The notes below the pieces were generated by a model, which saw only the letters and a list, made by a program, of their open reading frames with translations, had not been told where the DNA came from and did no database searches. From Acidimicrobiales bacterium (lineage in GTDB: Bacteria; Actinomycetota; Acidimicrobiia; Acidimicrobiales; SZUA-35): a stretch of DNA of 40,022 bases. The translations under genes were made by a program, and so were the position numbers. Below are positions 5,487-37,223 of this stretch, piece by piece (position 1 is the stretch's first letter; each line of letters begins with the position of its first letter). The stretch is from NCBI GenBank assembly GCA_041584095.1, contig JBFHEP010000002.1, positions 1 through 40,022 on the forward strand. The letters are read 5' to 3'.

Positions 5487-6071
5487 CTACTGGACGCTTG
5501 AGCTGTCGATGGCGGCCGGCCCGGTATGACCATGGCGGGAGTAGTGGCGGTTCTCGCCCACTTTCAGGAGGAGCTCACCCACGGTGAGAGCCTCGGCCGG
5601 GAAGCATGCCGAAGACCAGGTGGCAATCGGGTTGGCGTTGGGCGGGATGCGGTTCAAGGTTCTCCGGGCGTCGGTGCACCCGGGCAGCAGAAGATAGGTC
5701 ACGTCGTCACTGACGACGATGGTGTCGATGCTGCGAGTCGCCGACTCGAGGGTGCGAACCGACGATCCCGGTCGAAGGATCAGCCTGGCCAGCGTGAGCG
5801 GGTATCCCAACCTCCGAGCCCGTTCGACCTCTTCGAACAAATAGGTCACGAGGTCGGTTCTACCGGGGTCGACCGTCGGCGTGTCGACATAGGATGTCCG
5901 GGCAGCGAAAACGGCCAGCACGAGCAGCCCAAAGGCGCCCAGCAGGAAATAGGGATTAAGTAAAACAAACATCATCGCCGTGGCCCCTCCGATCGCCAAG
6001 GATTTGTCAGGGCTGAACCCTCTGCAACCCTCCACCGAGTTCAGCCAAGCCCGTGAGTGGCCAGTGTACAT
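5487..6071 (-). CDS. hypothetical membrane protein, possible degenerate GGDEF-like cytoplasmic domain
   Basis: High third-position GC. TM helix (NPYFLLGAFGLLVLAVFAA). The downstream segment LFEEVERARRLGYPLTLARLIL...SIDTIVVSDDVTYLLLPG follows the spacing of a GGDEF fold but has SDDVTY in place of GGDEF and lacks the Mg/GTP motifs. The stop lies 5 nt upstream of the sugar-transferase start. The true start may be the internal ATG at 5975 (MMFVLLN). Confidence 0.5.
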   Translation of the reverse strand: MYTGHSRAWLNSVEGCRGFSPDKSLAIGGATAMMFVLLNPYFLLGAFGLLVLAVFAARTSYVDTPTVDPGRTDLVTYLFEEVERARRLGYPLTLARLILRPGSSVRTLESATRSIDTIVVSDDVTYLLLPGCTDARRTLNRIPPNANPIATWSSACFPAEALTVGELLLKVGENRHYSRHGHTGPAAIDSSSVQ

Positions 6072-6137
6072 CTGGCAAAGAGCTGGCCAAAAGCGGGTAA
6101 GTCACAGGTTAAGGGAGCAAAACTACCTGATCACGGG

Positions 6138-6812
6138 CTAGCGGTTTTCGCTCCGGCCATCGCTGAAGGTCTTGGCGAGCTCGAGCGCTCTGACGAGTTC
6201 GTCGCGCTGGCGACATTTGACCAGCCACCATGGTCGCTTGAGCTCGGTGTTGCGCTGCTCTATCAAGACGGCATCGATGGATTCCTTATCGACGGTGATC
6301 CGAGTCCATCCGAGCCGCTTTCCCTCGTAGCGCAGCGCCATGGATTTGCGCCACATCTTCCCGCGCCGGTCTTCCGACACCGCTTTGACGATGCCGATCT
6401 CCGATGCCGGAAGATGTCGCGGCACGAGCAGTTCGACGCGAGCCCCGGACGGCCACAACGTCCACCCCCGGTGTCGAATCCAGAGTCCGTGTCGGTCTAC
6501 CGACACCCGGGCGCCGACCGAGCCGAAGGGCCCGTACCACGAGAGCATGGCCACTGCGGCCAGCGCGAGCGCGAAGACGGCACTACCGAGCTGACCGCCG
6601 GGTTCCCCCTGCGCCGCGTTGAACAGTCCGACGACGGCCAGCGCGAGGAGGAGCACAACCGTGGCCGAGGCGAAGATGTCCTTGAACTCCCGCTCGCCCT
6701 GCTCGGACCAGGGGAGCGTGACCGCCTCGACATCGGACACCTCTCCGGCTTGCCGTGTCGATTCGGGCCGAGCATCGGCCTCCTCACCGTCGCCGTTCAT
6801 CGGCAACACCAT
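6138..6812 (-). CDS. hypothetical two-TM membrane protein with C-terminal PH-like (bPH) domain
   Basis: The ORF track runs from a TTG at 6992, but its first 60 codons lie in GC-poor, non-protein-like sequence. I start at the ATG at 6812 (MVLPMNGDGEE). Two hydrophobic helices (VVLLLALAVVGLF, AVFALALAAVAMLSWY) are followed by VSVDRHGLWIRHRGW...IGIVKAV...ALRYEGKRLGWTRITVD, which resembles a bacterial PH domain. Confidence 0.5.
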   Translation of the reverse strand: MVLPMNGDGEEADARPESTRQAGEVSDVEAVTLPWSEQGEREFKDIFASATVVLLLALAVVGLFNAAQGEPGGQLGSAVFALALAAVAMLSWYGPFGSVGARVSVDRHGLWIRHRGWTLWPSGARVELLVPRHLPASEIGIVKAVSEDRRGKMWRKSMALRYEGKRLGWTRITVDKESIDAVLIEQRNTELKRPWWLVKCRQRDELVRALELAKTFSDGRSENR

Positions 6813-7432
6813 ACTCGACCAGCCGAGCGTCGACCTCCGCTCCGCCGCCTGCCAGAACCGGCTACTGGTGATAGCCGACTTGAGGGCATTTTCATGTGAA
6901 TGGACGATCCGAGGTTCGGAACAAAAAGTCCAATAGTCGATTGTCGAATACCTCGGATTGGGTATTGAGCCACATGAGCGCTCCAGCGACAATCAGGTCG
7001 TAGACGACGTAGGACACGTTGACTGCGTAGATGTTCAGCGGTATCACCGACGGGCGTCACCGTCCGGTCTAGGCTGGAGATCAAAGCAACGATCAACTGG
7101 TGGGACAATTTTGAGTGGTCATTGGCGGGTCTCGCATGGCGTGCGAGATGCGAAGAGAACGCCCGTCGAAGAGCCCCCGGTTCTCTCGATCCTGGTCGAA
7201 TACAGGTCGTGCAAGGGCCAGGCCGTCGAGGAAAGCGGTGCATTCGGCACCCCGGGCGGGCTGTCTCGCCACAAGAGCGTTGATCCTACGGCAGCCTGGC
7301 AGGGCGGGACCCCGACCGCAAACGGGGAGGTGGGTGGCGGCGGCCCGAACGATGGGTGACCTGTCCCGAACCCAACCGCCCGGTGCGCAGACGACAGAGC
7401 CTTCGGCGAGCCCTTCTGAGGAGGGAAGCAAC

Positions 7433-15217: not shown

Positions 15218-15229
15218 AATTTGGATTAT
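15216..15229. promoter_or_regulatory. AT-rich dyad ATAAT-TTGG-ATTAT, candidate LysR-type operator
   Basis: Perfect 5-bp arms with a 4-bp spacer. It lies in the 82-nt AT-rich divergent region and overlaps the LysR start codon (15215-15217). The assignment rests only on position and dyad symmetry. Confidence 0.3.
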
Positions 15230-15271
15230 AAGACTAACTGATCAATACGGCAAATAATCATCGCTTTTGAT

Positions 15272-15286
15272 GGACACCACGTGTCC
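15272..15286. promoter_or_regulatory. dyad GGACAC-CAC-GTGTCC upstream of the 15300 ORF
   Basis: Perfect 6-bp inverted arms with a 3-bp spacer, 14 nt upstream of the ATG at 15300. It could be a second operator half or an RNA hairpin. Confidence 0.3.
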
Positions 15287-15299
15287 GTAGGATTGAATC

Positions 15300-15704
15300 A
15301 TGAAGAAGATTCCCAGCACCGAAGACCTCGCCCGACTCGGAGCCTCGATCCACGATCACGGGTTCCGACCCAACGAACAACAACTCACCGACATCGCCCT
15401 CCTGGCCCGCCAGGTGCGACCCGACTGGGCCGTTCTCGACGTGGTGGCCGACCGTGCCCACCCGGAAGTGGTCCGGGCACGAGCCCTCAGCCGACTGAGT
15501 GCCGACTGGGAGTCGATTCGGCTCGAACTCGAATCCTTTCGAGCCCGCTTCGAGGCCGATCTCGAAGGCCTCCTGACCCGCTGGAACGTCCACCAGGATC
15601 TCCGCCGGAGCGGCGCTCCCGTGGCCGACCTGGTCGAGTCCCGGAGCCGGCTCGACGCCATCCGCTCCGAAATGGGCCGCTACCGGCAGCTTGTGACACG
15701 ATAA
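15300..15704 (+). CDS. hypothetical small helical protein
   Basis: 134 aa with an ATG start. Predicted all-helical and Arg/Leu/Asp-rich. I recognise no family. The stop lies 4 nt before the aminotransferase GTG. Confidence 0.55.
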   Translation: MKKIPSTEDLARLGASIHDHGFRPNEQQLTDIALLARQVRPDWAVLDVVADRAHPEVVRARALSRLSADWESIRLELESFRARFEADLEGLLTRWNVHQDLRRSGAPVADLVESRSRLDAIRSEMGRYRQLVTR

Positions 15705-15708
15705 GCGG

Positions 15709-30189: not shown

Positions 30190-31338
30190 GTGAGCAACTT
30201 GACGACGGCGCTGGAGGACATCCTGGTGGTGGCGGTCGAGCAGGCCGTGGCCGCCCCCGTCTGCACGGCTCGGCTGCGGGACGCCGGAGCTCGGATCATC
30301 AAGATCGAGCGTCCCGAAGGGGATTTCGCCCGTGGCTACGACACTGCGGCCGGCGGCGACAGCTCGTATTTCGCCTGGGCCAATCACGGGAAGGAGTCGG
30401 TCGTGCTCGACTTCAAGAAGCCCGACGACGCCGCCCTGCTGAGGCGCCTGGTCGCCGCCGCGGATGTGTTCGTGCAGAACCTGGTGCCCGGTGCGCTCGA
30501 ACGTGCCGGGTTCGGATCCGCTCGCCTCCGGTCCGACCACCCTCCGCTCATCACTCTCGACATCAGCGGCTACGGCGAGTCTCCCGAGCTGGCGGACAAG
30601 AAGGCCTATGACCTCCTCGTCCAGGCCGAGAGCGGACTGATCGGGATTTCGGGCGGCCCGAACGAACTCGGTCGGATCGGGGTTTCGGTTTGCGACATCG
30701 GCACCGGGGTCACCGCCTACGGTGCCGTGTTGGAGGCGCTGCTGGCCCGAACCATGACCGGCCAAGGTCGGAGCATCCGTCTCTCGCTGTTCGACATGAT
30801 GGCCGAGTGGATGTCGGTACCCCTCGTCCAGCACGAGTACGGAGATGGCGGCCCGACCAGGGTCGGGCTTCGCCATCCGACGATTGCCCCCTACGGAGCC
30901 TACGCCACATCCGAGGGAGCTCTGACGCTCATCTCGATCCAGAACGAACGGGAGTGGGTCCGGTTGTGCGCCGAGACTCTGGCCGACCCGGACCTGGTCG
31001 ACGATCCGCGGTTCATGTCCAACAACGATCGGGTGGCGAACCGGGAGGCACTGGAGGTGGAGCTGGATCGGCGGATCCGAGCACTCGATCGGGCCGAGTT
31101 CCACCGCCGTCTCGCCGCCGCGACCATCGCCTACGGTTCGGTCAACTCGCTCGACGATCTGGCCGCCCACCCGGCGCTGCGTCGTCGTACGATTGTGAGC
31201 AGCAGCGGGACCGCCGTCGACCTGGCCGCCCACCCCGTTCGGTGGACCGACGGCGATCGAACCGACGGGTCCACCGCGGCACCCGTGGTTCCTGCAGTCG
31301 GCGAGCACACCGAAGCCGTCCGGGCGGAGTTCTCCTGA
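30190..31338 (+). CDS. family III (CaiB/BaiF-type) CoA-transferase
   Basis: GTG at 30190 (VSNLTTALEDILVVAVEQAVAAPVCTARLRDAGARIIKIERPEGDFARGY). Active-site Asp context GVSVCDIGTGV. The length (~382 aa) is typical of the family. Confidence 0.85.
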   Translation: MSNLTTALEDILVVAVEQAVAAPVCTARLRDAGARIIKIERPEGDFARGYDTAAGGDSSYFAWANHGKESVVLDFKKPDDAALLRRLVAAADVFVQNLVPGALERAGFGSARLRSDHPPLITLDISGYGESPELADKKAYDLLVQAESGLIGISGGPNELGRIGVSVCDIGTGVTAYGAVLEALLARTMTGQGRSIRLSLFDMMAEWMSVPLVQHEYGDGGPTRVGLRHPTIAPYGAYATSEGALTLISIQNEREWVRLCAETLADPDLVDDPRFMSNNDRVANREALEVELDRRIRALDRAEFHRRLAAATIAYGSVNSLDDLAAHPALRRRTIVSSSGTAVDLAAHPVRWTDGDRTDGSTAAPVVPAVGEHTEAVRAEFS

Positions 31339-31503
31339 ACCAACTGCGCCGACCGGTCGGCTCGGATGGCAAAGGGCAGAAATCTTCGACGATGCGGGAA
31401 CTTTTCCCCGCTGTATCGCGACTCAGTATTCGAACGGACAGCAAATCTTTGCTTGCGGGTGAGAACTTTCGAGTGCGGTAGAGCTGTTCGCTCCACATAG
31501 TTC

Positions 31504-31620
31504 TGACATCTGGCAGCCGGAGTTCCTCTATCCGATGAGTCGGCCTTGGACCACGCGGCGGACCTGAGGCGGGCTTATTGGCCTAAACGCAAACCGCTGA
31601 ACAATGGCTGCCAGATGTCA
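31504..31620. repeat. perfect 15-bp inverted repeat closing an 87-nt interior
   Basis: TGACATCTGGCAGCC (31504-31518) and GGCTGCCAGATGTCA (31606-31620) are exact reverse complements. Located in an ORF-less, GC-poor spacer. Confidence 0.9.
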
Positions 31621-31624
31621 CTCT

Positions 31625-31682
31625 CTCTCCGACGGCTTTCCTCCCCGGACCGATACCGGTCCTTCCTCTCGCCGTCGGAGAG
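31625..31682. repeat. nested hairpin: perfect 12-bp outer stem, pyrimidine-rich internal loops, 6-bp inner stem
   Basis: CTCTCCGACGGC (31625-31636) pairs with GCCGTCGGAGAG (31671-31682). Inside, TTTCCTCCCC precedes GGACCG-ATAC-CGGTCC (31647-31662), which is followed by TTCCTCTC. Confidence 0.9.
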
Positions 31683-31688
31683 CTGTGT

Positions 31689-31756
31689 AACCAAACTGTG
31701 TGATCGAACATCCAAGAAGAGCGGCTTCGGCCGAACCACAACTGTGGTGTATCGAA
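31689..31756 (+). repeat. two ~20-nt direct repeats flanking a C(UUCG)G tetraloop hairpin
   Basis: AACCAAACTGTGTGATCGAA (31689-31708) and AACCACAACTGTGGTGTATCGAA (31734-31756). CGGC-TTCG-GCCG lies between them at 31722-31733. The UUCG loop reads as such only on the plus strand. Confidence 0.85.
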
Positions 31757-32053
31757 TGAACGTCCTGGCGCGGGGCGTTTGTTCGCGTTTTCGGCCCGTC
31801 GCCACCCTGGTCGGCGCTCGTCAAGAAATCGGAAATACTGGCTCCGGCCTAGCGGCTGTCCACGCCTTTCCAATATCGTGGTGTGGCAAGCGTGTAGGCG
31901 CTCACTGTAGGGACAGCAATCATTCACAACGACGCCGCGATAGTCGATGAACTCCTAACCTTCCTCCAATCGGGCTCGCCGGTCGTCGACGCGCGGCTGG
32001 CCACGATCTACGCGGACGCCGACCCGGATCTTGCCGATCGGCTGCTCGACAGC

Positions 32054-32572
32054 GTGGCCGTCCAGGCCTCCCAGGGTTCGCCCTATGCCCTGCAGTTGCT
32101 TCTCAACCTCATATCGGAGCACCGGCTGGCCTACCCGGGTATCAGCCGCCACATCCTCACCCGCTCGGTGCAGGAGGATGTGGCGCAGGATGTGCTGATC
32201 GCCGTCGCCCGGTCGATCCACCGCTACCGGGGTGATTCGAAGTTCACCACCTGGCTCTACGCCGTTGCCCGGAACACGGCCGTCGCCGAGTTGCGTCGCA
32301 GCCGTTCCGCGGTCTCGTACGATGACGAGTCGAACAACGAACAGGACGCCCTGCGTTTCAGCTCCCGGGCCACCGATCGCCAGATCATTCAGACTGCCAT
32401 CGGGCAACTCCCAGCGATTTTCCGTGAAATCGTCTACCTGCGTGACGTGCAGCGAATGAGTTACGAGGACATCGCCAATCACGAAGGCATCGCCATCAAC
32501 ACCGTTCGATCCCGCCTGTCACGGGGTCGGGCGCTTCTCGCCACGGAGCTGGCGGCATTCCGAGGCCTATGA
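32054..32572 (+). CDS. ECF-type RNA polymerase sigma-70 family factor
   Basis: Region 2: EDVAQDVLIAVARSIHRYRGDSKFTTWLYAVARNTAVAELRR. Region 4: REIVYLRDVQRMSYEDIANHEGIAINTVRSRLSRGRALL. GTG at 32054 is the first canonical start, but the frame is open and codon-biased from about 31920. The stop overlaps the kinase ATG (ATGA). Confidence 0.85.
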   Translation: MAVQASQGSPYALQLLLNLISEHRLAYPGISRHILTRSVQEDVAQDVLIAVARSIHRYRGDSKFTTWLYAVARNTAVAELRRSRSAVSYDDESNNEQDALRFSSRATDRQIIQTAIGQLPAIFREIVYLRDVQRMSYEDIANHEGIAINTVRSRLSRGRALLATELAAFRGL

Positions 32573-33507
32573 CGAATCTGCCGACCGCACGTTCGAAGCG
32601 AATCGACAAGTATCGAATCATCGCGCCGATCGGTGTCGGCTCATCGGCTACGGTCTACCGGGCGATCGACGAGTCGAGCGGCTACGAGGTGGCGATCAAA
32701 GTGCTGGCGGAGAACCTCAGCCTGCTACCGGAACCGCGTCAGCGGTTCTACGACGAGGCGGAGATTCTCCGAGGGATCGACAGCCCGGCCATCGCCCGGA
32801 TCTACCACGTGGGCGAGACCGACACCGGGCAGCCGTTCATGGTGCTCGAGCTGGCCGACAGAGGTGACCTGCGTCGCCGAGTCGATGAGCTGCGAGCCCG
32901 GGCCGAGTCGATCGACTGGACCGATCTCTGGGCCCTGGGCCGTCACCTGCACGAGGCACTCAGCTCGTTACATCAGCGCGGCATCATTCACCGCGACGTC
33001 TCGCCGGGCAATATCCTCATCCAACATCGCAGCGAACTGACCGGCCTGTCGGCGGCCAACCTGCTCGAACCAGGGGAACGATTCATCCTGTCCGACCTCG
33101 GCTTCGCCAAAGATCTGGAGTGGGCCTCGGGCTTCACCGCCGGCGGCGGAACGAGGGGTTTCGCCTCCCCCGAGCAGTTGAATGAGGTGACCGTCGTCGA
33201 TCATCGAACCGACATCTTCAGCGCCTCCGCCGTGATCGACTGGACGGTTTACGACGGTCCGTTCGCGAAGGCGCTCGAACCGTTTCTGCTGAAGGGCCTG
33301 GCCGACGATCCGGACGATCGCTTCGAGACGATCGACGAGTGGTACGACGCGTTCGTCGATGCCATGGATGTCATCGAGTCGTGGGACGACCCGCCCCGCC
33401 GAGGCGGTTGGCTTCCCGCAGCGCTCGTGTTCATCGCCGGAATCGCTCTCATCGTGCTGGTCTTGTGGTTCACCGACTCGCTGAGCGAGCTGATCGACGC
33501 GCTGTGA
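32569..33507 (+). CDS. Hanks-type Ser/Thr protein kinase, tail-anchored, no extracellular sensor domain
   Basis: Motifs: IGVGSSATVY (Gly loop), VAIKVL, DEAEIL, HRDVSPGNILI, SDLGFAK, GTRGFASPEQ. One C-terminal TM helix (WLPAALVFIAGIALIVLVLWF) is followed by only 11 residues. Confidence 0.88.
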   Translation: MTNLPTARSKRIDKYRIIAPIGVGSSATVYRAIDESSGYEVAIKVLAENLSLLPEPRQRFYDEAEILRGIDSPAIARIYHVGETDTGQPFMVLELADRGDLRRRVDELRARAESIDWTDLWALGRHLHEALSSLHQRGIIHRDVSPGNILIQHRSELTGLSAANLLEPGERFILSDLGFAKDLEWASGFTAGGGTRGFASPEQLNEVTVVDHRTDIFSASAVIDWTVYDGPFAKALEPFLLKGLADDPDDRFETIDEWYDAFVDAMDVIESWDDPPRRGGWLPAALVFIAGIALIVLVLWFTDSLSELIDAL

Positions 33508-33570
33508 GGTTGACCGGTCGGGGGACGAGCAGCGAGCCACGAGGAGCAGGGACCGCAGCGCCGGAACGCC

Positions 33571-33601
33571 CATGTGCCCGGACCAACGGCCCGGGCACAT
33601 G
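33571..33601 (+). terminator. strong hairpin 63 nt downstream of the kinase stop, candidate U-tail-less terminator
   Basis: CATGTGCCCGG (33571-33581), loop ACCAACGGC, CCGGGCACATG (33591-33601). The stem is a perfect 11 bp. There is no T-run after it. Confidence 0.45.
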
Positions 33602-33759
33602 TCCAACTCCGGAAGCTCACGCGGTATCTTCCTGAACGCCACATGGGCGTTTCCTGGTGAGAAAATCGGGGAGTTCCGAGGTTGGAGTTCGACTATCGAT
33701 CGCTGCTCAGTTATCTGTCACAACGTTCGAAAGGAGAACCTTCTCCTGAGTCCTGGTTT

Positions 33760-33850
33760 GCGGCGGATCATCCACAGAGATACCTGTTGTCTCAGCGTGC
33801 GTTACCGGAAATCCCTTACGGGAAATCTCAGTGTGCGGCAGATCATCCAC
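33760..33850. repeat. direct repeats GCGGCrGATCATCCAC (x2) interleaved with TCTCAGyGTGCG (x2) and GGAAATC (x2)
   Basis: GCGGCGGATCATCCAC at 33760-33775 and GCGGCAGATCATCCAC at 33835-33850. TCTCAGCGTGCG at 33790-33801 and TCTCAGTGTGCG at 33826-33837. GGAAATC at 33807-33813 and 33821-33827. Confidence 0.85.
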
Positions 33851-34408
33851 GAATAGGGTTCCGGAGGTGGTCCTCCTTGTCGGCGGGTGAGGTGTCGCTC
33901 TGTCGTGCGACAACGCATAGATTAGCGCCTCATCAGCATCTGTCAACCTGAAACCACCAGCAGCCCCAAACTTCGATACCTGAGGACGTTGTCATCGCGA
34001 TGAAATATTACGACTCTACGGACCCTGTTTCAGCTGGTGGTCGCGTGTCATGTCGCCCTCGCTTCGACGTCGTTCCGTAAGATTGGCCGGTCACCGCCGG
34101 CGGGGTGCTGAAGGGGACGGTGTCGCTACGACGCCATCAAATCCTCCGGTTGGACTACAACATTCAAGCTGCTGCCGCTAGGCTCGGTGCAGACGTTCGG
34201 CGATTCAGGCTGCCGCCCAACCCGCCAAACGGCTCGTAACGGTGACTAGAGGAACCAGGACGTCGGCTCAAAGAAGGTCCCACGGCAGGGAGGTCCGAGG
34301 ACCGGAGTGAGCGGACGAAGAACAAAGCGGTCCAAGAGGGACGTTTGCCGCAACGACCGAACGGGTTCGATGCGGGGGCGGACGGTCGGAACGTTCAGGA
34401 GTTGATGC

Positions 34409-36502
34409 ATGGTGGAGCTGAACGAGGAGGCGAGGGACTACCTCACCGGCGACAATGCAAAGGCGGCACTGATGTCGCAATACGGATCGCCGACGATCGC
34501 CTCCACCTCCTCCGCCGTCGACTACGGCTTGCCGTTGGTGGTTGCCGGCCTGAAACGCCGGGCAGAGGATTCGGCAGGCATCGTCAATCTCCTGAATCTG
34601 GTTCGCTCGCTCGACACGAGCCAGCTCGGCACGGAGGCGATGTGGAGCCGAACCTCCCACCGCGCGGTCATGGGCCCGGACCTGACCGAGATTCTGTTTC
34701 GTGACCAGAACGGCCAAGGCACCCACGAAACCGTGATCGCCAAGCTGGCCGAGCGGGCCCGGGTCGACTTCGAAACCGCGCAGGGCATTCTCGGCTCCTG
34801 CACGTGGATGCTGCTGGCCGTGCTCGTCAATCGCTACAGCCGTTCCCTCGACCGGCAGACGCTGCTGCGGGTGGCCGACGAGGAACGCCGGCTGCTCTCG
34901 GAGCAGGGGTGGGATCCGTGGATCCGCGCCGTCGAGTGGGAAACCAACGCAGTCGGAGGCAGCGATACCCTCTACGTCGATTCCCTTCCCACTCCACCGA
35001 GAACCACCACCGCCAGTACCGGGGACCGCTCGGGCCGGTACCCGCCTCCGGTGAGCCGGGGCGATCGCAGCGATGGGCCCGCACATTCTTTTGCGCCCGA
35101 ACCCCCCAACACCGGCCGCCGGTCGGAAGGACACGAGGCGGCGGGTCTGGGCGGAGTCGGCCTCGGCGGATATGCACCACCCGAACGCCCCGGCCGTGGC
35201 CCCGCACCGATCGAGTACGGCGGCGGACGTGGACCCGACTATCCCGATCCGCGCCTCGCGTCGGGCCGCCGTCGCCCGATGACCGCGCCCCAGCCGGCGC
35301 ATCGGCATACCCGGCCCCGAGCACCGATGCCCGAGCCGAAGCCTCGACGGTGGCCGATAGCGGTGGCATTGGCCGCCGTGCTGCTCTTGGCCGGCGGTGT
35401 CTGGTGGCTCATCGGCGGCGGTGATGACACCGATGTCGACTCCGCCCAAGGCGAAGCGGTCGACTCGGCGGTCACGGCAACCGACGAGGCGTCCGGCTCC
35501 GACGAGTCGACCGACGCCGCGGCGGCGGAGTCCGGCGATGGCGCAGCCCTGGCCACCGACTACACCGGAATCGTCACCATGGACGTTCCCATGCGCGACA
35601 TCTTCACCGGCGAGACCACCAACGCAACAGGCAGCGTGACCTTCACCATCGATGCCAACACCGGCGAGGCGTGCGCCCTGGTGGCGACTGACGGGGTTTC
35701 GGGTCCGTACGCTTCACACATCCACCTTGGCGCCTTCCGGGAACGGGGTCCGGTGGTTGTGAATTTCGGCGACATGAACGACGGGGTCGAGAAGTGTGTC
35801 GCCAACGATCTCGACGACATCAACGAGATATTGGCCGATCGGTCCGAGTACTACGGTGAGATGCACGACGTCGGCGGTGAGTACACCGTGCGCGGACAGC
35901 TGTCGGAAGCCGATCCGTTCGATGATCGGCGCGACCCGGCTCTCCTTCCCGACCTTGACGGCGGCTCGGCACTGTTCGACACCGACCCCGACCCGCTTCT
36001 GAACGGCGCCCGCGTCCGATTCGAGGGGTCGACGCTGGTGGCCACCGGCGAGGTCGACAGCCAGGAGGTCCTCGACGCCCTCATCTCGGCGCTCGAGGCA
36101 TCGGGTGTGACGGTTGTGAACGAATTGCTGGTGGTGCCGGGCTCGCCGCCGCCGTCCGGGCGGTTCATCGCCAACCAAGGACTCACGTTCGGGGTCGGCA
36201 GTGATCAGCTCGAAGGCGATAACAGTGCGGTGCTGGAAACGATGGCGAAGGTTCTCGCCGCCAATCCGGATTGGAAACTCACCGTTGCCGGCCACACCGA
36301 CAGCACCGGGTCAAGGGTCGACAATCTCGAACTGTCCCAGCGCCGGGCGATCACCGTTCGTACGGCACTCGAGGAGCTGGGTGTCGCCACCGATGTGCTG
36401 AAGATCGCCGGCTACGGTCCGGAGCAGCCGATCGGCGACAACAGCACGGCCGAGGGACGTCGCCGGAACCGGCGCATCGAGTTCGTCATCGACCCCACCT
36501 GA
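34409..36502 (+). CDS. bitopic envelope protein: DUF937-like cytoplasmic domain, Pro/Arg/Gly linker, TM, CHRD-like, BON-like and OmpA-C peptidoglycan-binding domains
   Basis: ATG at 34409, 7 nt after AGGAG. TM helix: WPIAVALAAVLLLAGGVWWLIGG. CHRD-like: GSVTFTIDANTGEACALVATDGVSGPYASHIHLGAFRERGPVVVNF. BON-like: VRFEGSTLVATGEVDSQEVLDALISALEASGVTVVNELLV. OmpA-C: FGVGSDQLEGDNSAVLETMAKVLAANPDWKLTVAGHTDSTGS...NLELSQRRA...NRRIEFVI. Confidence 0.8.
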   Translation: MVELNEEARDYLTGDNAKAALMSQYGSPTIASTSSAVDYGLPLVVAGLKRRAEDSAGIVNLLNLVRSLDTSQLGTEAMWSRTSHRAVMGPDLTEILFRDQNGQGTHETVIAKLAERARVDFETAQGILGSCTWMLLAVLVNRYSRSLDRQTLLRVADEERRLLSEQGWDPWIRAVEWETNAVGGSDTLYVDSLPTPPRTTTASTGDRSGRYPPPVSRGDRSDGPAHSFAPEPPNTGRRSEGHEAAGLGGVGLGGYAPPERPGRGPAPIEYGGGRGPDYPDPRLASGRRRPMTAPQPAHRHTRPRAPMPEPKPRRWPIAVALAAVLLLAGGVWWLIGGGDDTDVDSAQGEAVDSAVTATDEASGSDESTDAAAAESGDGAALATDYTGIVTMDVPMRDIFTGETTNATGSVTFTIDANTGEACALVATDGVSGPYASHIHLGAFRERGPVVVNFGDMNDGVEKCVANDLDDINEILADRSEYYGEMHDVGGEYTVRGQLSEADPFDDRRDPALLPDLDGGSALFDTDPDPLLNGARVRFEGSTLVATGEVDSQEVLDALISALEASGVTVVNELLVVPGSPPPSGRFIANQGLTFGVGSDQLEGDNSAVLETMAKVLAANPDWKLTVAGHTDSTGSRVDNLELSQRRAITVRTALEELGVATDVLKIAGYGPEQPIGDNSTAEGRRRNRRIEFVIDPT

Positions 36503-36668
36503 TCGACGGGCCGCATCGGCTGCCGTCCGCAGCTCGGATGTTTGCACCTGAAGGATTTCTTGCCTCAAGGCTCGCTTTTCGTGTCATTTCTGACCAGAAT
36601 CGAACATGACGCTCCAAACAACCGCCTGGGGCGTCGCCCCGATCAGAGGTGGAGGCACCGATCCGCCG

Positions 36669-37223
36669 CTACGTGCCTCCACCTCGCTCTGGGGAGTCGG
36701 GAGACTGGGTTGGGTCGACTGTCGCGTCATGGCTGTAGCCGAGCGCGGCCAATATCTGATTCAGCAGCTCCAGAACGGAGCCGAGATCATCGCCCAGAAA
36801 ACGGGTGAAGTACCGCTCGATGCCGTCGAGGTGGGTGGGGCTGGCCGCCTTGAGCACCTCGAATCCCTCGTCGGTCAGGACGGCGTGCTTGACCCGTCCG
36901 TCGTCGGCGTCCGACTCGCGGCGAACCAGGCCTTCGGCTGCCAGACGATCGACCAGACGGCTGCAGTTCGACGGCGAGATCAGCAGGGCCGACGCAAGGT
37001 TCCCCATCGTTCGACGACCGCCGGCTTCGACGAGCTGGACGAGGACGTCGTACCACTCGATTGAGAGTTCATGTCCGGCCTGGAGATCGTCGTCCATCTG
37101 ACGGACGATCCTGGTGTGGGCCTCGAGAAAGAGGCGCCACACCCGTAGCCGCTCGTCGTCCTGCCAGCGCCTCGCCACGCTTCCATCCGTCGTCAACGAT
37201 CCGTTCCCCTCCTGTGCGGACAC
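36669..37223 (-). CDS. MarR-family transcriptional regulator
   Basis: 184 aa with a GTG start 6 nt after the paaZ stop. wHTH motif: WYDVLVQLVEAGGRRTMGNLASALLISPSNCSRLVDRLAAEGLVRRESDADDGRVKHAVLTDEG. Confidence 0.85.
   Translation of the reverse strand: MSAQEGNGSLTTDGSVARRWQDDERLRVWRLFLEAHTRIVRQMDDDLQAGHELSIEWYDVLVQLVEAGGRRTMGNLASALLISPSNCSRLVDRLAAEGLVRRESDADDGRVKHAVLTDEGFEVLKAASPTHLDGIERYFTRFLGDDLGSVLELLNQILAALGYSHDATVDPTQSPDSPERGGGT

Follow-up and report, generated by a model that had tools for sequence, protein, structure and literature searches.

The stretch analysed here (the window) is 40 kb of DNA with 66.1% G+C from an uncultured member of the Acidimicrobiia, and the subject of this study is a block at positions 31339-36502, in which a gene for an extracytoplasmic function (ECF) sigma factor is followed by a gene for a Hanks-type Ser/Thr kinase. 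The gene order is a family III CoA-transferase gene that ends at 31338, a 583-nt spacer (spacer 1), the ECF sigma gene, the Hanks kinase gene, a 901-nt spacer (spacer 2), the gene for a 697-aa OmpA-like protein and a MarR-family regulator gene. We found that the sigma and kinase genes constitute a conserved two-gene module without an anti-sigma factor. In about 46 of the 65 genomic loci examined, including ones whose kinase is only 34% identical, the sigma gene is located directly 5' of the kinase gene, as it is in several metagenome loci. The loci nearest to the window are from metagenome-assembled genomes (MAGs) labelled Acidimicrobiia or Acidimicrobiales, with kinase identity of up to 95%; related loci are numbered from L001 in this text. 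The features from the promoter to the kinase gene are as follows.

31396-31425, plus strand: ECF-type promoter motif GGGAACTTTT-N11-CGCGAC-NNA, unique in the 40 kb
31503-31621, plus strand: structured core of the sigma leader, 117 nt, recognised by stability and covariation
31625-31682, plus strand: second leader hairpin, CUCUCCGACGGC ... GCCGUCGGAGAG with an inner hairpin, from a 7-sequence alignment
31753-31794, plus strand: terminator-like or attenuator hairpin with a 15-bp stem and four G-U pairs, then CGUUUUCGG (CGUUUU)
31869-31876, plus strand: TCCAATAT box about 45 nt 5' of the ATT start, TCCAATA in 11/11 loci, last base T, C or G
31922-32572, plus strand: ECF sigma gene, 216 aa if the start is ATT, recognised by Pfam Sigma70_r2 and r4 and protein-level conservation
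32569-33507, plus strand: Hanks-type Ser/Thr kinase gene, 312 aa, tail-anchored product, Pfam Pkinase 1.5e-28

The start codon of the kinase gene overlaps the stop codon of the sigma gene (ATGA). The kinase residues G22/G24, K44, H141-R142-D143, N148, D176-L-G178 and P201-E202 (SPE) are invariant in 30 sequences. The protein has a single transmembrane helix at its C-terminus (residues 279-301, nt 33403-33471), after which only 11 residues follow, whereas most of the more distant kinase relatives have an extracellular domain of 120-200 aa. The kinase is thus input-less, as an initial annotation of this DNA had described it. The same annotation had described an ECF sigma factor and a kinase lacking the canonical anti-sigma factor, and this is borne out by the Pfam domains, by the adjacency of the two genes in the loci counted above and by the spacers, neither of which contains a conserved open reading frame (ORF). 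The adjacency extends to the cultured actinomycete Nesterenkonia haasae, whose pair is the closest cultured relative found (35% identity for the sigma factor, 41% for the kinase). The initial annotation was not aware of a characterised actinobacterial system of such composition; kinase-associated ECF sigma factors without an anti-sigma factor, including the actinobacterial group ECF283, have already been described.

It might be argued that the spacers hide small protein genes, such as one for the missing anti-sigma factor, and ORFs of 68-134 aa can indeed be drawn in both of them. However, substitutions in the spacers show no 3-nt periodicity, many small indels break the frames, and no gene is called in the spacers of relatives. 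Conservation there consists of invariant blocks of 15-40 nt together with compensatory base-pair changes. We consider hidden small proteins to be very improbable.

The sigma protein matches the Pfam models Sigma70_r2 (5.7e-12) and Sigma70_r4_2 (3.5e-14) and scores 79 bits against the NCBIfam model sigma70-ECF (cut-off 42.9 bits). It aligns to E. coli sigma-E and has the sigma2 and sigma4 domains only, as is the case for ECF (group 4) sigma factors. Its conservation at the protein level begins 35 codons 5' of GTG 32054 (tblastn), and there is no ATG, GTG or TTG between the in-frame stop at 31895 and this GTG in the window and seven relatives. An in-frame ATT is found at the same position in 11/11 loci of the clade, 3-13 nt 3' of a purine-rich Shine-Dalgarno-like run, which is AGGGA at 31909-31913 in the window; in L006 and L010 an upstream stop leaves merely three or four codons ahead of the ATT. 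ATC is presumably the preferred Ile codon at such G+C. From this conservation, ATT 31922 is most likely the translation start, so that spacer 1 is 583 nt in length. Relative to E. coli sigma-E, the protein is extended at its N-terminus by about 35 aa. A start at GTG 32054, with a spacer 1 of about 715 nt, was rejected because the sigma frame is conserved at the protein level farther 5'. Public gene calls cut the sigma protein to 172 aa, and in more distant clades the start codon is GTG.

The linker between the sigma2 and sigma4 domains, usually a variable region, contains R145-F-S-S148 (nt 32354-32365), and the motif R-[FLMIV]-S-S (R-Φ-S-S) is found in about 60 homologues, out to Nesterenkonia. 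Region 2.2 of the window protein is VQEDVAQD, and the E/D-E/D and Q-E/D positions are kept in nearly all of about 60 homologues. In the kinase-associated group ECF43, the DAED/DxxDxxQE motif of region 2.2 has been lost and is replaced by S/QTTA with a phospho-threonine. Membership in ECF43 was considered and discarded, as the window protein retains the acidic region 2.2 and does not have the S/QTTA replacement. Because the acidic residues are kept there, an ECF43-type switch in region 2.2 is unlikely. The phosphosite by which EcfK is switched on also lies in the sigma2-sigma4 linker (PMC13147305), so that by analogy the R-Φ-S-S motif is a candidate phospho-acceptor or switch.

The ECF-type promoter motif 5' of the sigma gene has a score of 36, and the sole other site in the window to exceed 4 is below 6. 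In L001-L010 the motif occurs once per 20-kb locus, at the same place, and about 18 more distant loci have it within 1 kb of the kinase gene, giving about 29 loci in all. The general form is GGAAC and then CG.C 15-17 nt later. Because of this form and its strict association with the module, the motif at 31396 is likely to be the cognate promoter of the sigma factor, which would imply autoregulation in the clade of the window; transcription would start near 31433. A deletion edge, to which we return below, is located about 1 nt 5' of the -35 element. A scan of metagenomes with the motif yielded more sigma-kinase loci, plus sites directly 5' of genes for lipoproteins and secreted proteins. At L106 4863 and L113 2758, both from metagenomes, the motif is 80-110 nt 5' of secreted proteins starting ...AAAHVTVNP..., which we take to resemble the YcnI/DUF1775 type and which may be further regulon members.

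Between the promoter and the sigma gene, the leader has a structured core composed of a 15-bp closing helix around a multi-stem junction, with the invariant loops GGACCACGCGGCGGACC and AACGCAAAACCGCUGAAC. Its minimum free energy is -60.9 kcal/mol (z = -6.1). Among 11 loci, 96.9% of the cells are paired and 14/41 pairs show compensatory changes, compared with at most 3 in slid controls. The identity of the core is 96, 95, 79, 78 and 70%, which is similar to that of the first and second codon positions of the kinase gene; the third positions are at 68, 63, 46, 52 and 48%. Judged against these third positions, the core is under purifying selection. The leader is assigned to the plus strand because of its G-U pairs, the orientation of the promoter and its retention after the loss of a divergent ABC operon. 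The second leader hairpin is retained in L006 despite a larger loop. The terminator-like hairpin folds on the plus strand only (-19.5 vs -8.8 kcal/mol); it is near-invariant in L001-L006, and the few one-sided changes preserve pairing. With regard to a riboswitch or transcription attenuator, the leader has a covarying core plus a 3' hairpin with a short U-tract, and no alternative pairing or ligand was identified. The TCCAATAT box closer to the sigma gene may be the -10 element of a second (housekeeping) promoter, or an RNA element. Rfam gave no match at the gathering score in the window and none at E up to 1 in 31300-34450, and a tRNA scan of both spacers found nothing.

In a sister clade, the same ECF-type promoter precedes an 85-nt structured RNA, here called R1, which was found in L023-L037 and L049 and in a dozen metagenome loci. 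Examples are as follows.

L023 11224-11571: R1 RNA
L024 5419-5622: R1 RNA
L027 11141-11224: R1 RNA
L070, L081, L095, L115, L119, L123: R1 RNA in metagenome loci

R1 consists of a TCTAGC hairpin and a long helix that carries a CUAACUGCCCCAA loop. It points towards the kinase gene in a convergent arrangement and is sometimes present in two or three tandem copies; 99% of its cells are paired and 13/23 pairs show compensatory changes. No ORF follows R1. The ORFs that seem to lie 3' of the minus-strand motif in L023-L049 are antisense to the kinase gene and were dismissed. R1 has no Rfam match (five related loci matched only a tRNA), and it is absent from the window according to two covariance models run with filters off. 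These loci show that the sigma family repeatedly has structured RNA as a direct target. Since the promoter of the sister clade drives a structured RNA, it is likely that the leader in the window has an RNA-level function of its own.

The remaining features of the block, in spacer 2 and the OmpA-like gene, are as follows.

33560-34026, plus strand: conserved structured element of spacer 2, about 470 nt, recognised by nhmmer and covariation
33563-33604, plus strand: strong hairpin, 55 nt past the kinase stop, -24 kcal/mol, z = -3.1
34131-34352, plus strand: less conserved tail of spacer 2, conserved in L001-L006 only
34409-36502, plus strand: OmpA-like gene, 697 aa, recognised by Pfam and PDB matches
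34409-34978, plus strand: DUF937-like cytoplasmic domain, then a Pro/Arg/Gly-rich linker
35351-35419, plus strand: transmembrane helix of the OmpA-like protein, residues 315-337
35612-35854, plus strand: CHRD domain, PF07452
36014-36178, plus strand: possible BON-like region
36185-36472, plus strand: OmpA-like peptidoglycan-binding domain, PF00691

The OmpA-like protein lacks a signal peptide and has a single transmembrane helix. Its cytoplasmic part is about 310 aa in length, of which the DUF937-like domain makes up about 190 aa. The OmpA domain is recognised with an E-value of 1.9e-19, GHTDSTGSRVDNLELSQRRA fits the motif TDxxG...N..LS..RA, and the PDB matches are YiaD, Pal and Rv0899. A membrane-spanning protein with a large cytoplasmic domain and a peptidoglycan-binding domain, as initially described, is therefore what is encoded here. 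The CHRD domain scores 39.6 bits against a cut-off of 24.1 bits, and 17/23 family members match it. For DUF937 (PF06078), the window protein has 18.4 bits (E 0.003), under the cut-off of 25.4 bits; 19/23 homologues match, with a best E of 9e-27. The BON region that had been proposed between CHRD and OmpA was not detected in the window protein by Pfam (PF04972, PF21923), even at E up to 10, although one homologue matches each of the BON and BON_like models. The alignment with Rv0899 covers residues 536-695 and reaches about 55 residues upstream of the OmpA domain. An exhaustive HMMER search found the family of the N-terminal domain in 25 clusters (50% identity) among 1.84 billion representatives, superseding a word-indexed protein search with the DUF937 domain that had given one match.

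The structured element of spacer 2 was found by nhmmer in L001-L010 only, always 5' of the OmpA-like gene. The kinase gene and this element are separated in L007 by four genes, of which two are on the opposite strand. Spacer 2 thus travels with the OmpA-like gene, not with the kinase gene. In the element, 96.1% of the cells are paired, and 20/74 pairs show compensatory changes compared with 4-7 in slid controls; several long-range helices are invariant and hence outside the covariation test. These values, together with those of the leader, agree with the extensive cis-acting structure that the initial annotation had claimed for the spacers, both of which hold selected, structured elements. The element may be a non-coding RNA in its own right, or else serve the OmpA-like gene as a long leader. 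The hairpin at its 5' end has compensatory changes in 5/10 pairs and moves along with spacer 2 in L007; it serves either to terminate the sigma-kinase operon or as the 5' stem-loop of the spacer-2 RNA. The less conserved tail presumably holds the proximal 5' UTR (untranslated region) or the promoter of the OmpA-like gene. Two 17-nt direct repeats, TGCGGC(G/A)GATCATCCAC, are present at 33759-33775 and 33834-33850. The sequence GCGGC(G/A)GA(C/T)C is common to these repeats and to the invariant apical loop of the leader core (31557-31566), and it might serve as a shared binding site or for contact between RNAs.

The relation of the OmpA-like gene to the module was judged from its neighbours in other genomes. 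The block of ABC operon, sigma-kinase genes, spacer 2 and OmpA-like gene is kept in L008-L010, in which the OmpA-like protein is about 33% identical to that of the window; the immediate flanks of the window (CoA-transferase on one side, MarR and AldDH-MaoC on the other) were not found in these three loci, and for L009 the flanks were also checked by Pfam. A sigma-type promoter is located directly 5' of genes for lipoproteins with an OmpA domain at the C-terminus, at L042 11401-13044, at L133 7144-8431 and in L107, and in L042 and L133 the promoter and the lipoprotein gene adjoin the sigma-kinase genes. In Nesterenkonia (L152 6236-7628) the order is sigma, kinase, lipoprotein and OmpA protein, with a degenerate promoter that has three mismatches. 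Because the OmpA domain is, in general, present in only a few genes per genome, such independent recurrence is unlikely to be due to chance. The sigma family is repeatedly tied to wall-binding OmpA-type proteins, and in the clade of the window any tie is indirect.

The initial annotation had regarded the block as a self-contained envelope-signalling unit. In the strong form of this idea, the sigma factor, the kinase and the OmpA-like protein are one unit in which the OmpA-like protein supplies the sensor: its wall-bound outer part would sense, and its DUF937 domain or helix would contact, or be phosphorylated by, the kinase, which would activate the sigma factor. The OmpA-like protein would then be a partner or substrate of the kinase. 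The 11 extracytoplasmic residues of the kinase, set against the large domain of its distant relatives, are consistent with this, as are the membrane-spanning neighbour with its cytoplasmic DUF937-like domain, the adjacency kept in 10 loci even though L008-L010 lack the immediate flanks of the window nearby, and the recurrence of OmpA-domain proteins beside the sigma-kinase family. However, the L007 kinase has an extracellular domain and is separated from the OmpA-like gene by the four genes mentioned above, and the sister clade has short kinases too, without such a neighbour. Distant DUF937-CHRD-OmpA genes (P0127, P0134, P0142) do not have sigma-kinase neighbours, and in one MAG the sigma-kinase pairs and the DUF937-OmpA gene are on different contigs. 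In L042, L133 and L152, the OmpA-domain proteins next to the module are lipoproteins that lack a cytoplasmic domain. We therefore hold the strong form to be unlikely. What stands of the envelope-signalling unit is the sigma-kinase module; the inclusion of the OmpA-like gene is weakened by the lack of a sigma promoter and by its unlinked distant relatives. The expected co-occurrence in other genomes was likewise found for the block in relatives, including L008-L010, and not for the distant DUF937-CHRD-OmpA genes.

The adjacency could also be inherited synteny, the OmpA-like gene and its upstream RNA being functionally unrelated to the sigma-kinase operon and merely lying side by side with it. 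The sigma promoter motif is absent 5' of the OmpA-like gene in 10/10 loci, even with a relaxed position-weight matrix. A hairpin lies between the two units, spacer 2 and the OmpA-like gene can move off from the kinase gene, as L007 shows, and the OmpA-like family also occurs without sigma-kinase neighbours. Wider synteny persists as well, since the PaaX and MMPL genes farther downstream are also syntenic between L003 and L009. On the other hand, the block is retained while its immediate flanks turn over, and OmpA-domain genes recur independently just 3' of sigma-kinase genes, behind a sigma-type promoter, in unrelated lineages including Nesterenkonia. We regard mere inherited synteny as a real possibility, albeit not the probable one.

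The surroundings of the block add a further partner. The two flanking features are as follows.

31339-31395: deletion junction, about 1.9 kb absent compared with the five nearest relatives, L001-L005
36669-37223, minus strand: MarR-family regulator gene, right flank, from gene calls and Pfam at the orthologous position in L067 and L066

The stretch L001 1267-3170 has no counterpart between 31339 and 31395 of the window. The deleted stretch in relatives is an operon of an ABC ATPase and an ABC-2 permease on the minus strand, identified in L003 and L067. The orthologous ABC ATPase gene is absent from the window. Because it is beside the sigma-kinase genes in 12 loci, in three different arrangements, the ABC operon is best seen as a conserved partner that has been lost here. 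At the right flank, a plus-strand ORF at 36606-37064 (152 aa) was rejected as spurious; it has no family match, and the minus-strand MarR gene is called there in relatives. Neighbouring genes were set by targeted tblastn and gene calls, because all-against-all clustering of the ORFs of the loci, filtered by G+C at third codon positions (GC3), was too noisy owing to antisense ORFs in high-G+C DNA.

The block had been described as a compositionally distinct islet, and its lower G+C (63.8% for the whole block) would suit a horizontally acquired genomic islet. The spacers have 58.1% (spacer 1) and 59.6% (spacer 2), with 54.7% in the lowest 400-nt bin, not the roughly 50% first reported. They are outliers in length as initially stated: in a close relative, gene calls put them at 729 and 878 nt, and all other gaps of that relative are 227 nt or shorter. 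The sigma (63.4%) and kinase (63.8%) genes, which had been called visibly less GC-rich, are only about 2.5 points under the window mean, and their GC3 of 0.79-0.82 is inside the range of the window. The low G+C is restricted to the non-coding RNA regions. Moreover, the synteny expected elsewhere was found: in L001-L005 the CoA-transferase and AldDH-MaoC genes likewise enclose the block, and in L006 it adjoins AldDH-MaoC, the DNA identity of block and flanks to L001-L006 is 68-84% in long aligned segments, and the block has diverged in proportion to its flanks. The window contains no tRNA gene according to a tRNA scan; neither an integrase nor flanking repeats came to notice, though no search aimed at them was made. 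The islet is already contradicted by the shared flanks, and we give it hardly any credence; the block is a chromosomal neighbourhood that has been conserved in an uncultured lineage of the Acidimicrobiia. Elsewhere in the window, a further gap of about 490 nt with 61.7% G+C is present between divergent ORFs at 15218-15708, and there are lower-G+C bins near 6000-7200. Overall, the initial observation is confirmed in part and its interpretation supported in part.

Taken together, the block would comprise two, possibly three, coupled units. The first would be the operon of the kinase-associated ECF sigma factor without an anti-sigma factor and the tail-anchored Hanks kinase. The sigma factor would recognise GGGAACTTTT-N11-CGCGAC about 525 nt 5' of its own start codon, resulting in positive autoregulation. 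The transcript would open with a leader of about 490 nt that contains the 117-nt covarying multi-stem structure and the terminator-like hairpin, at which much of the transcription may be attenuated or may stop, yielding a non-coding RNA about 360 nt long. Translation would start from the weak ATT codon, and the ATGA overlap would couple translation of the kinase to that of the sigma factor. By analogy with T106 of EcfK, the sigma factor is most likely activated when the kinase phosphorylates the R-F-S-S of the linker. The second unit would be the DUF937-TM-CHRD-OmpA protein (TM, transmembrane helix) and its own upstream RNA of about 470 nt; that this is a separate transcription unit is shown in L007 and is probable in the window. 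The third partner would be the ABC-2 exporter operon, which adjoins the module in relatives and is deleted in the window genome. The first and second units are probably coupled by regulation or physiology, around the theme of envelope homeostasis, and not through the promoter of the sigma factor here. In relatives the same promoter would drive OmpA-domain lipoproteins and other secreted proteins.

We consider this explanation, with coupled units, a kinase-switched sigma factor, RNA leaders and a separate OmpA-like unit, to be the best one and somewhat probable. Several points weigh against it, in addition to the missing promoter and the unlinked relatives of the OmpA-like gene. The promoter motif was not found 5' of the sigma genes in L011-L022, so autoregulation is not universal, and the promoter assignment is drawn from co-occurrence. 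The terminator-like hairpin is not recognisable in L007-L010, and where it is present its invariance places it beyond the reach of the covariation test. The alignments used to count pairs were also those that had yielded the RNA structures. The explanation as a whole is built on sequence comparison in uncultured organisms.

A bolder reading is that the principal direct target of the switch is structured RNA, namely the leader of about 360 nt in the clade of the window and the 85-nt R1 in the sister clade, which together with the spacer-2 element and its shared GCGGCGGAYC motif would form a post-transcriptional arm for wall-binding proteins, with the OmpA-like protein as the sensor of the kinase. 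We think this quite unlikely. If it were true, the system would be an actinobacterial counterpart of the sigma-E/small RNA (sRNA)/OmpA circuit made from unrelated parts. If the RNAs are sigma-dependent regulators of wall-binding proteins, control of OmpA-type proteins by an ECF sigma factor plus small RNAs would have arisen independently in Actinobacteria. The analysis yields a defined promoter motif, three candidate RNA families with covariation and without an Rfam counterpart, and a conserved ATT start, and the R-Φ-S-S linker motif is a testable proposal for the switching of kinase-associated ECF sigma factors outside ECF43. As these Acidimicrobiia are uncultured, the practical impact of the findings hinges on heterologous reconstitution.

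Some parts of the system resemble known ones. A conserved AUU start codon of the infC type is a non-canonical initiation codon of a regulatory gene and implies that initiation is weak or regulated. The sigma gene of the window resembles infC in its conserved ATT start, deduced here from conservation; unlike infC, it shows no sign here of IF3-dependent autoregulation. The OmpA-like protein resembles ArfA (Rv0899, OmpATb) of M. tuberculosis in being membrane-anchored with a C-terminal OmpA-like domain, which in ArfA is preceded by a BON-type region. It differs from ArfA by the added cytoplasmic DUF937 and CHRD domains, by the lack of a BON region detectable by Pfam and by its operon context.

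In E. coli, the sigma-E-dependent sRNAs MicA, RybB and MicL control the mRNAs of ompA, of other outer membrane proteins and of lpp. The present system resembles this circuit in that an ECF promoter would drive non-coding RNAs, OmpA-type proteins are in the circuit and the sigma operon would be autoregulated. This likeness is drawn from sequence alone, with no target pairing shown. Unlike the E. coli circuit, there is no RseA/RseB cascade, and the RNAs of the window are unrelated in sequence and are located in the leader of the sigma operon itself.

The closest comparison is with other kinase-associated ECF sigma factors. ECF sigma factors without an anti-sigma factor and with a co-encoded Ser/Thr kinase are known in ECF43, ECF59-62, ECF217, ECF267 and the actinobacterial ECF283 (PMC7826278, PMC8999054), and direct activating phosphorylation has been shown for EcfP/PknT and EcfK/PknS (PMC7826278, PMC8999054, PMC13147305). 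As in ECF43, represented by EcfP/PknT of Vibrio parahaemolyticus and EcfK/PknS of Xanthomonas citri, the sigma gene of the window adjoins the gene of a membrane Hanks kinase without an anti-sigma factor, and the kinase probably activates the sigma factor by direct phosphorylation. Unlike ECF43, the window protein belongs to another phylum, has the acidic V-Q-E-D-V-A-Q-D in region 2.2 instead of S/QTTA, and carries the N-terminal extension and the R-Φ-S-S linker motif, while its kinase is without an extracytoplasmic domain. The kinase-associated groups other than ECF43 keep the acidic motif, and their mechanism is reported to be unknown (PMC8999054). By its published description, ECF283 of Nocardioides is similar in being actinobacterial, with a co-encoded Ser/Thr kinase, no anti-sigma factor and a retained DAED-like motif (PMC7826278, PMC8999054). 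A kinase-controlled ECF switch is thus known in principle, and the linker motif, the promoter, the ATT start and the structured RNAs are what the present system adds. To our knowledge, neither a structured leader nor an ATT start nor an RNA target has been described before in the kinase-associated ECF groups.

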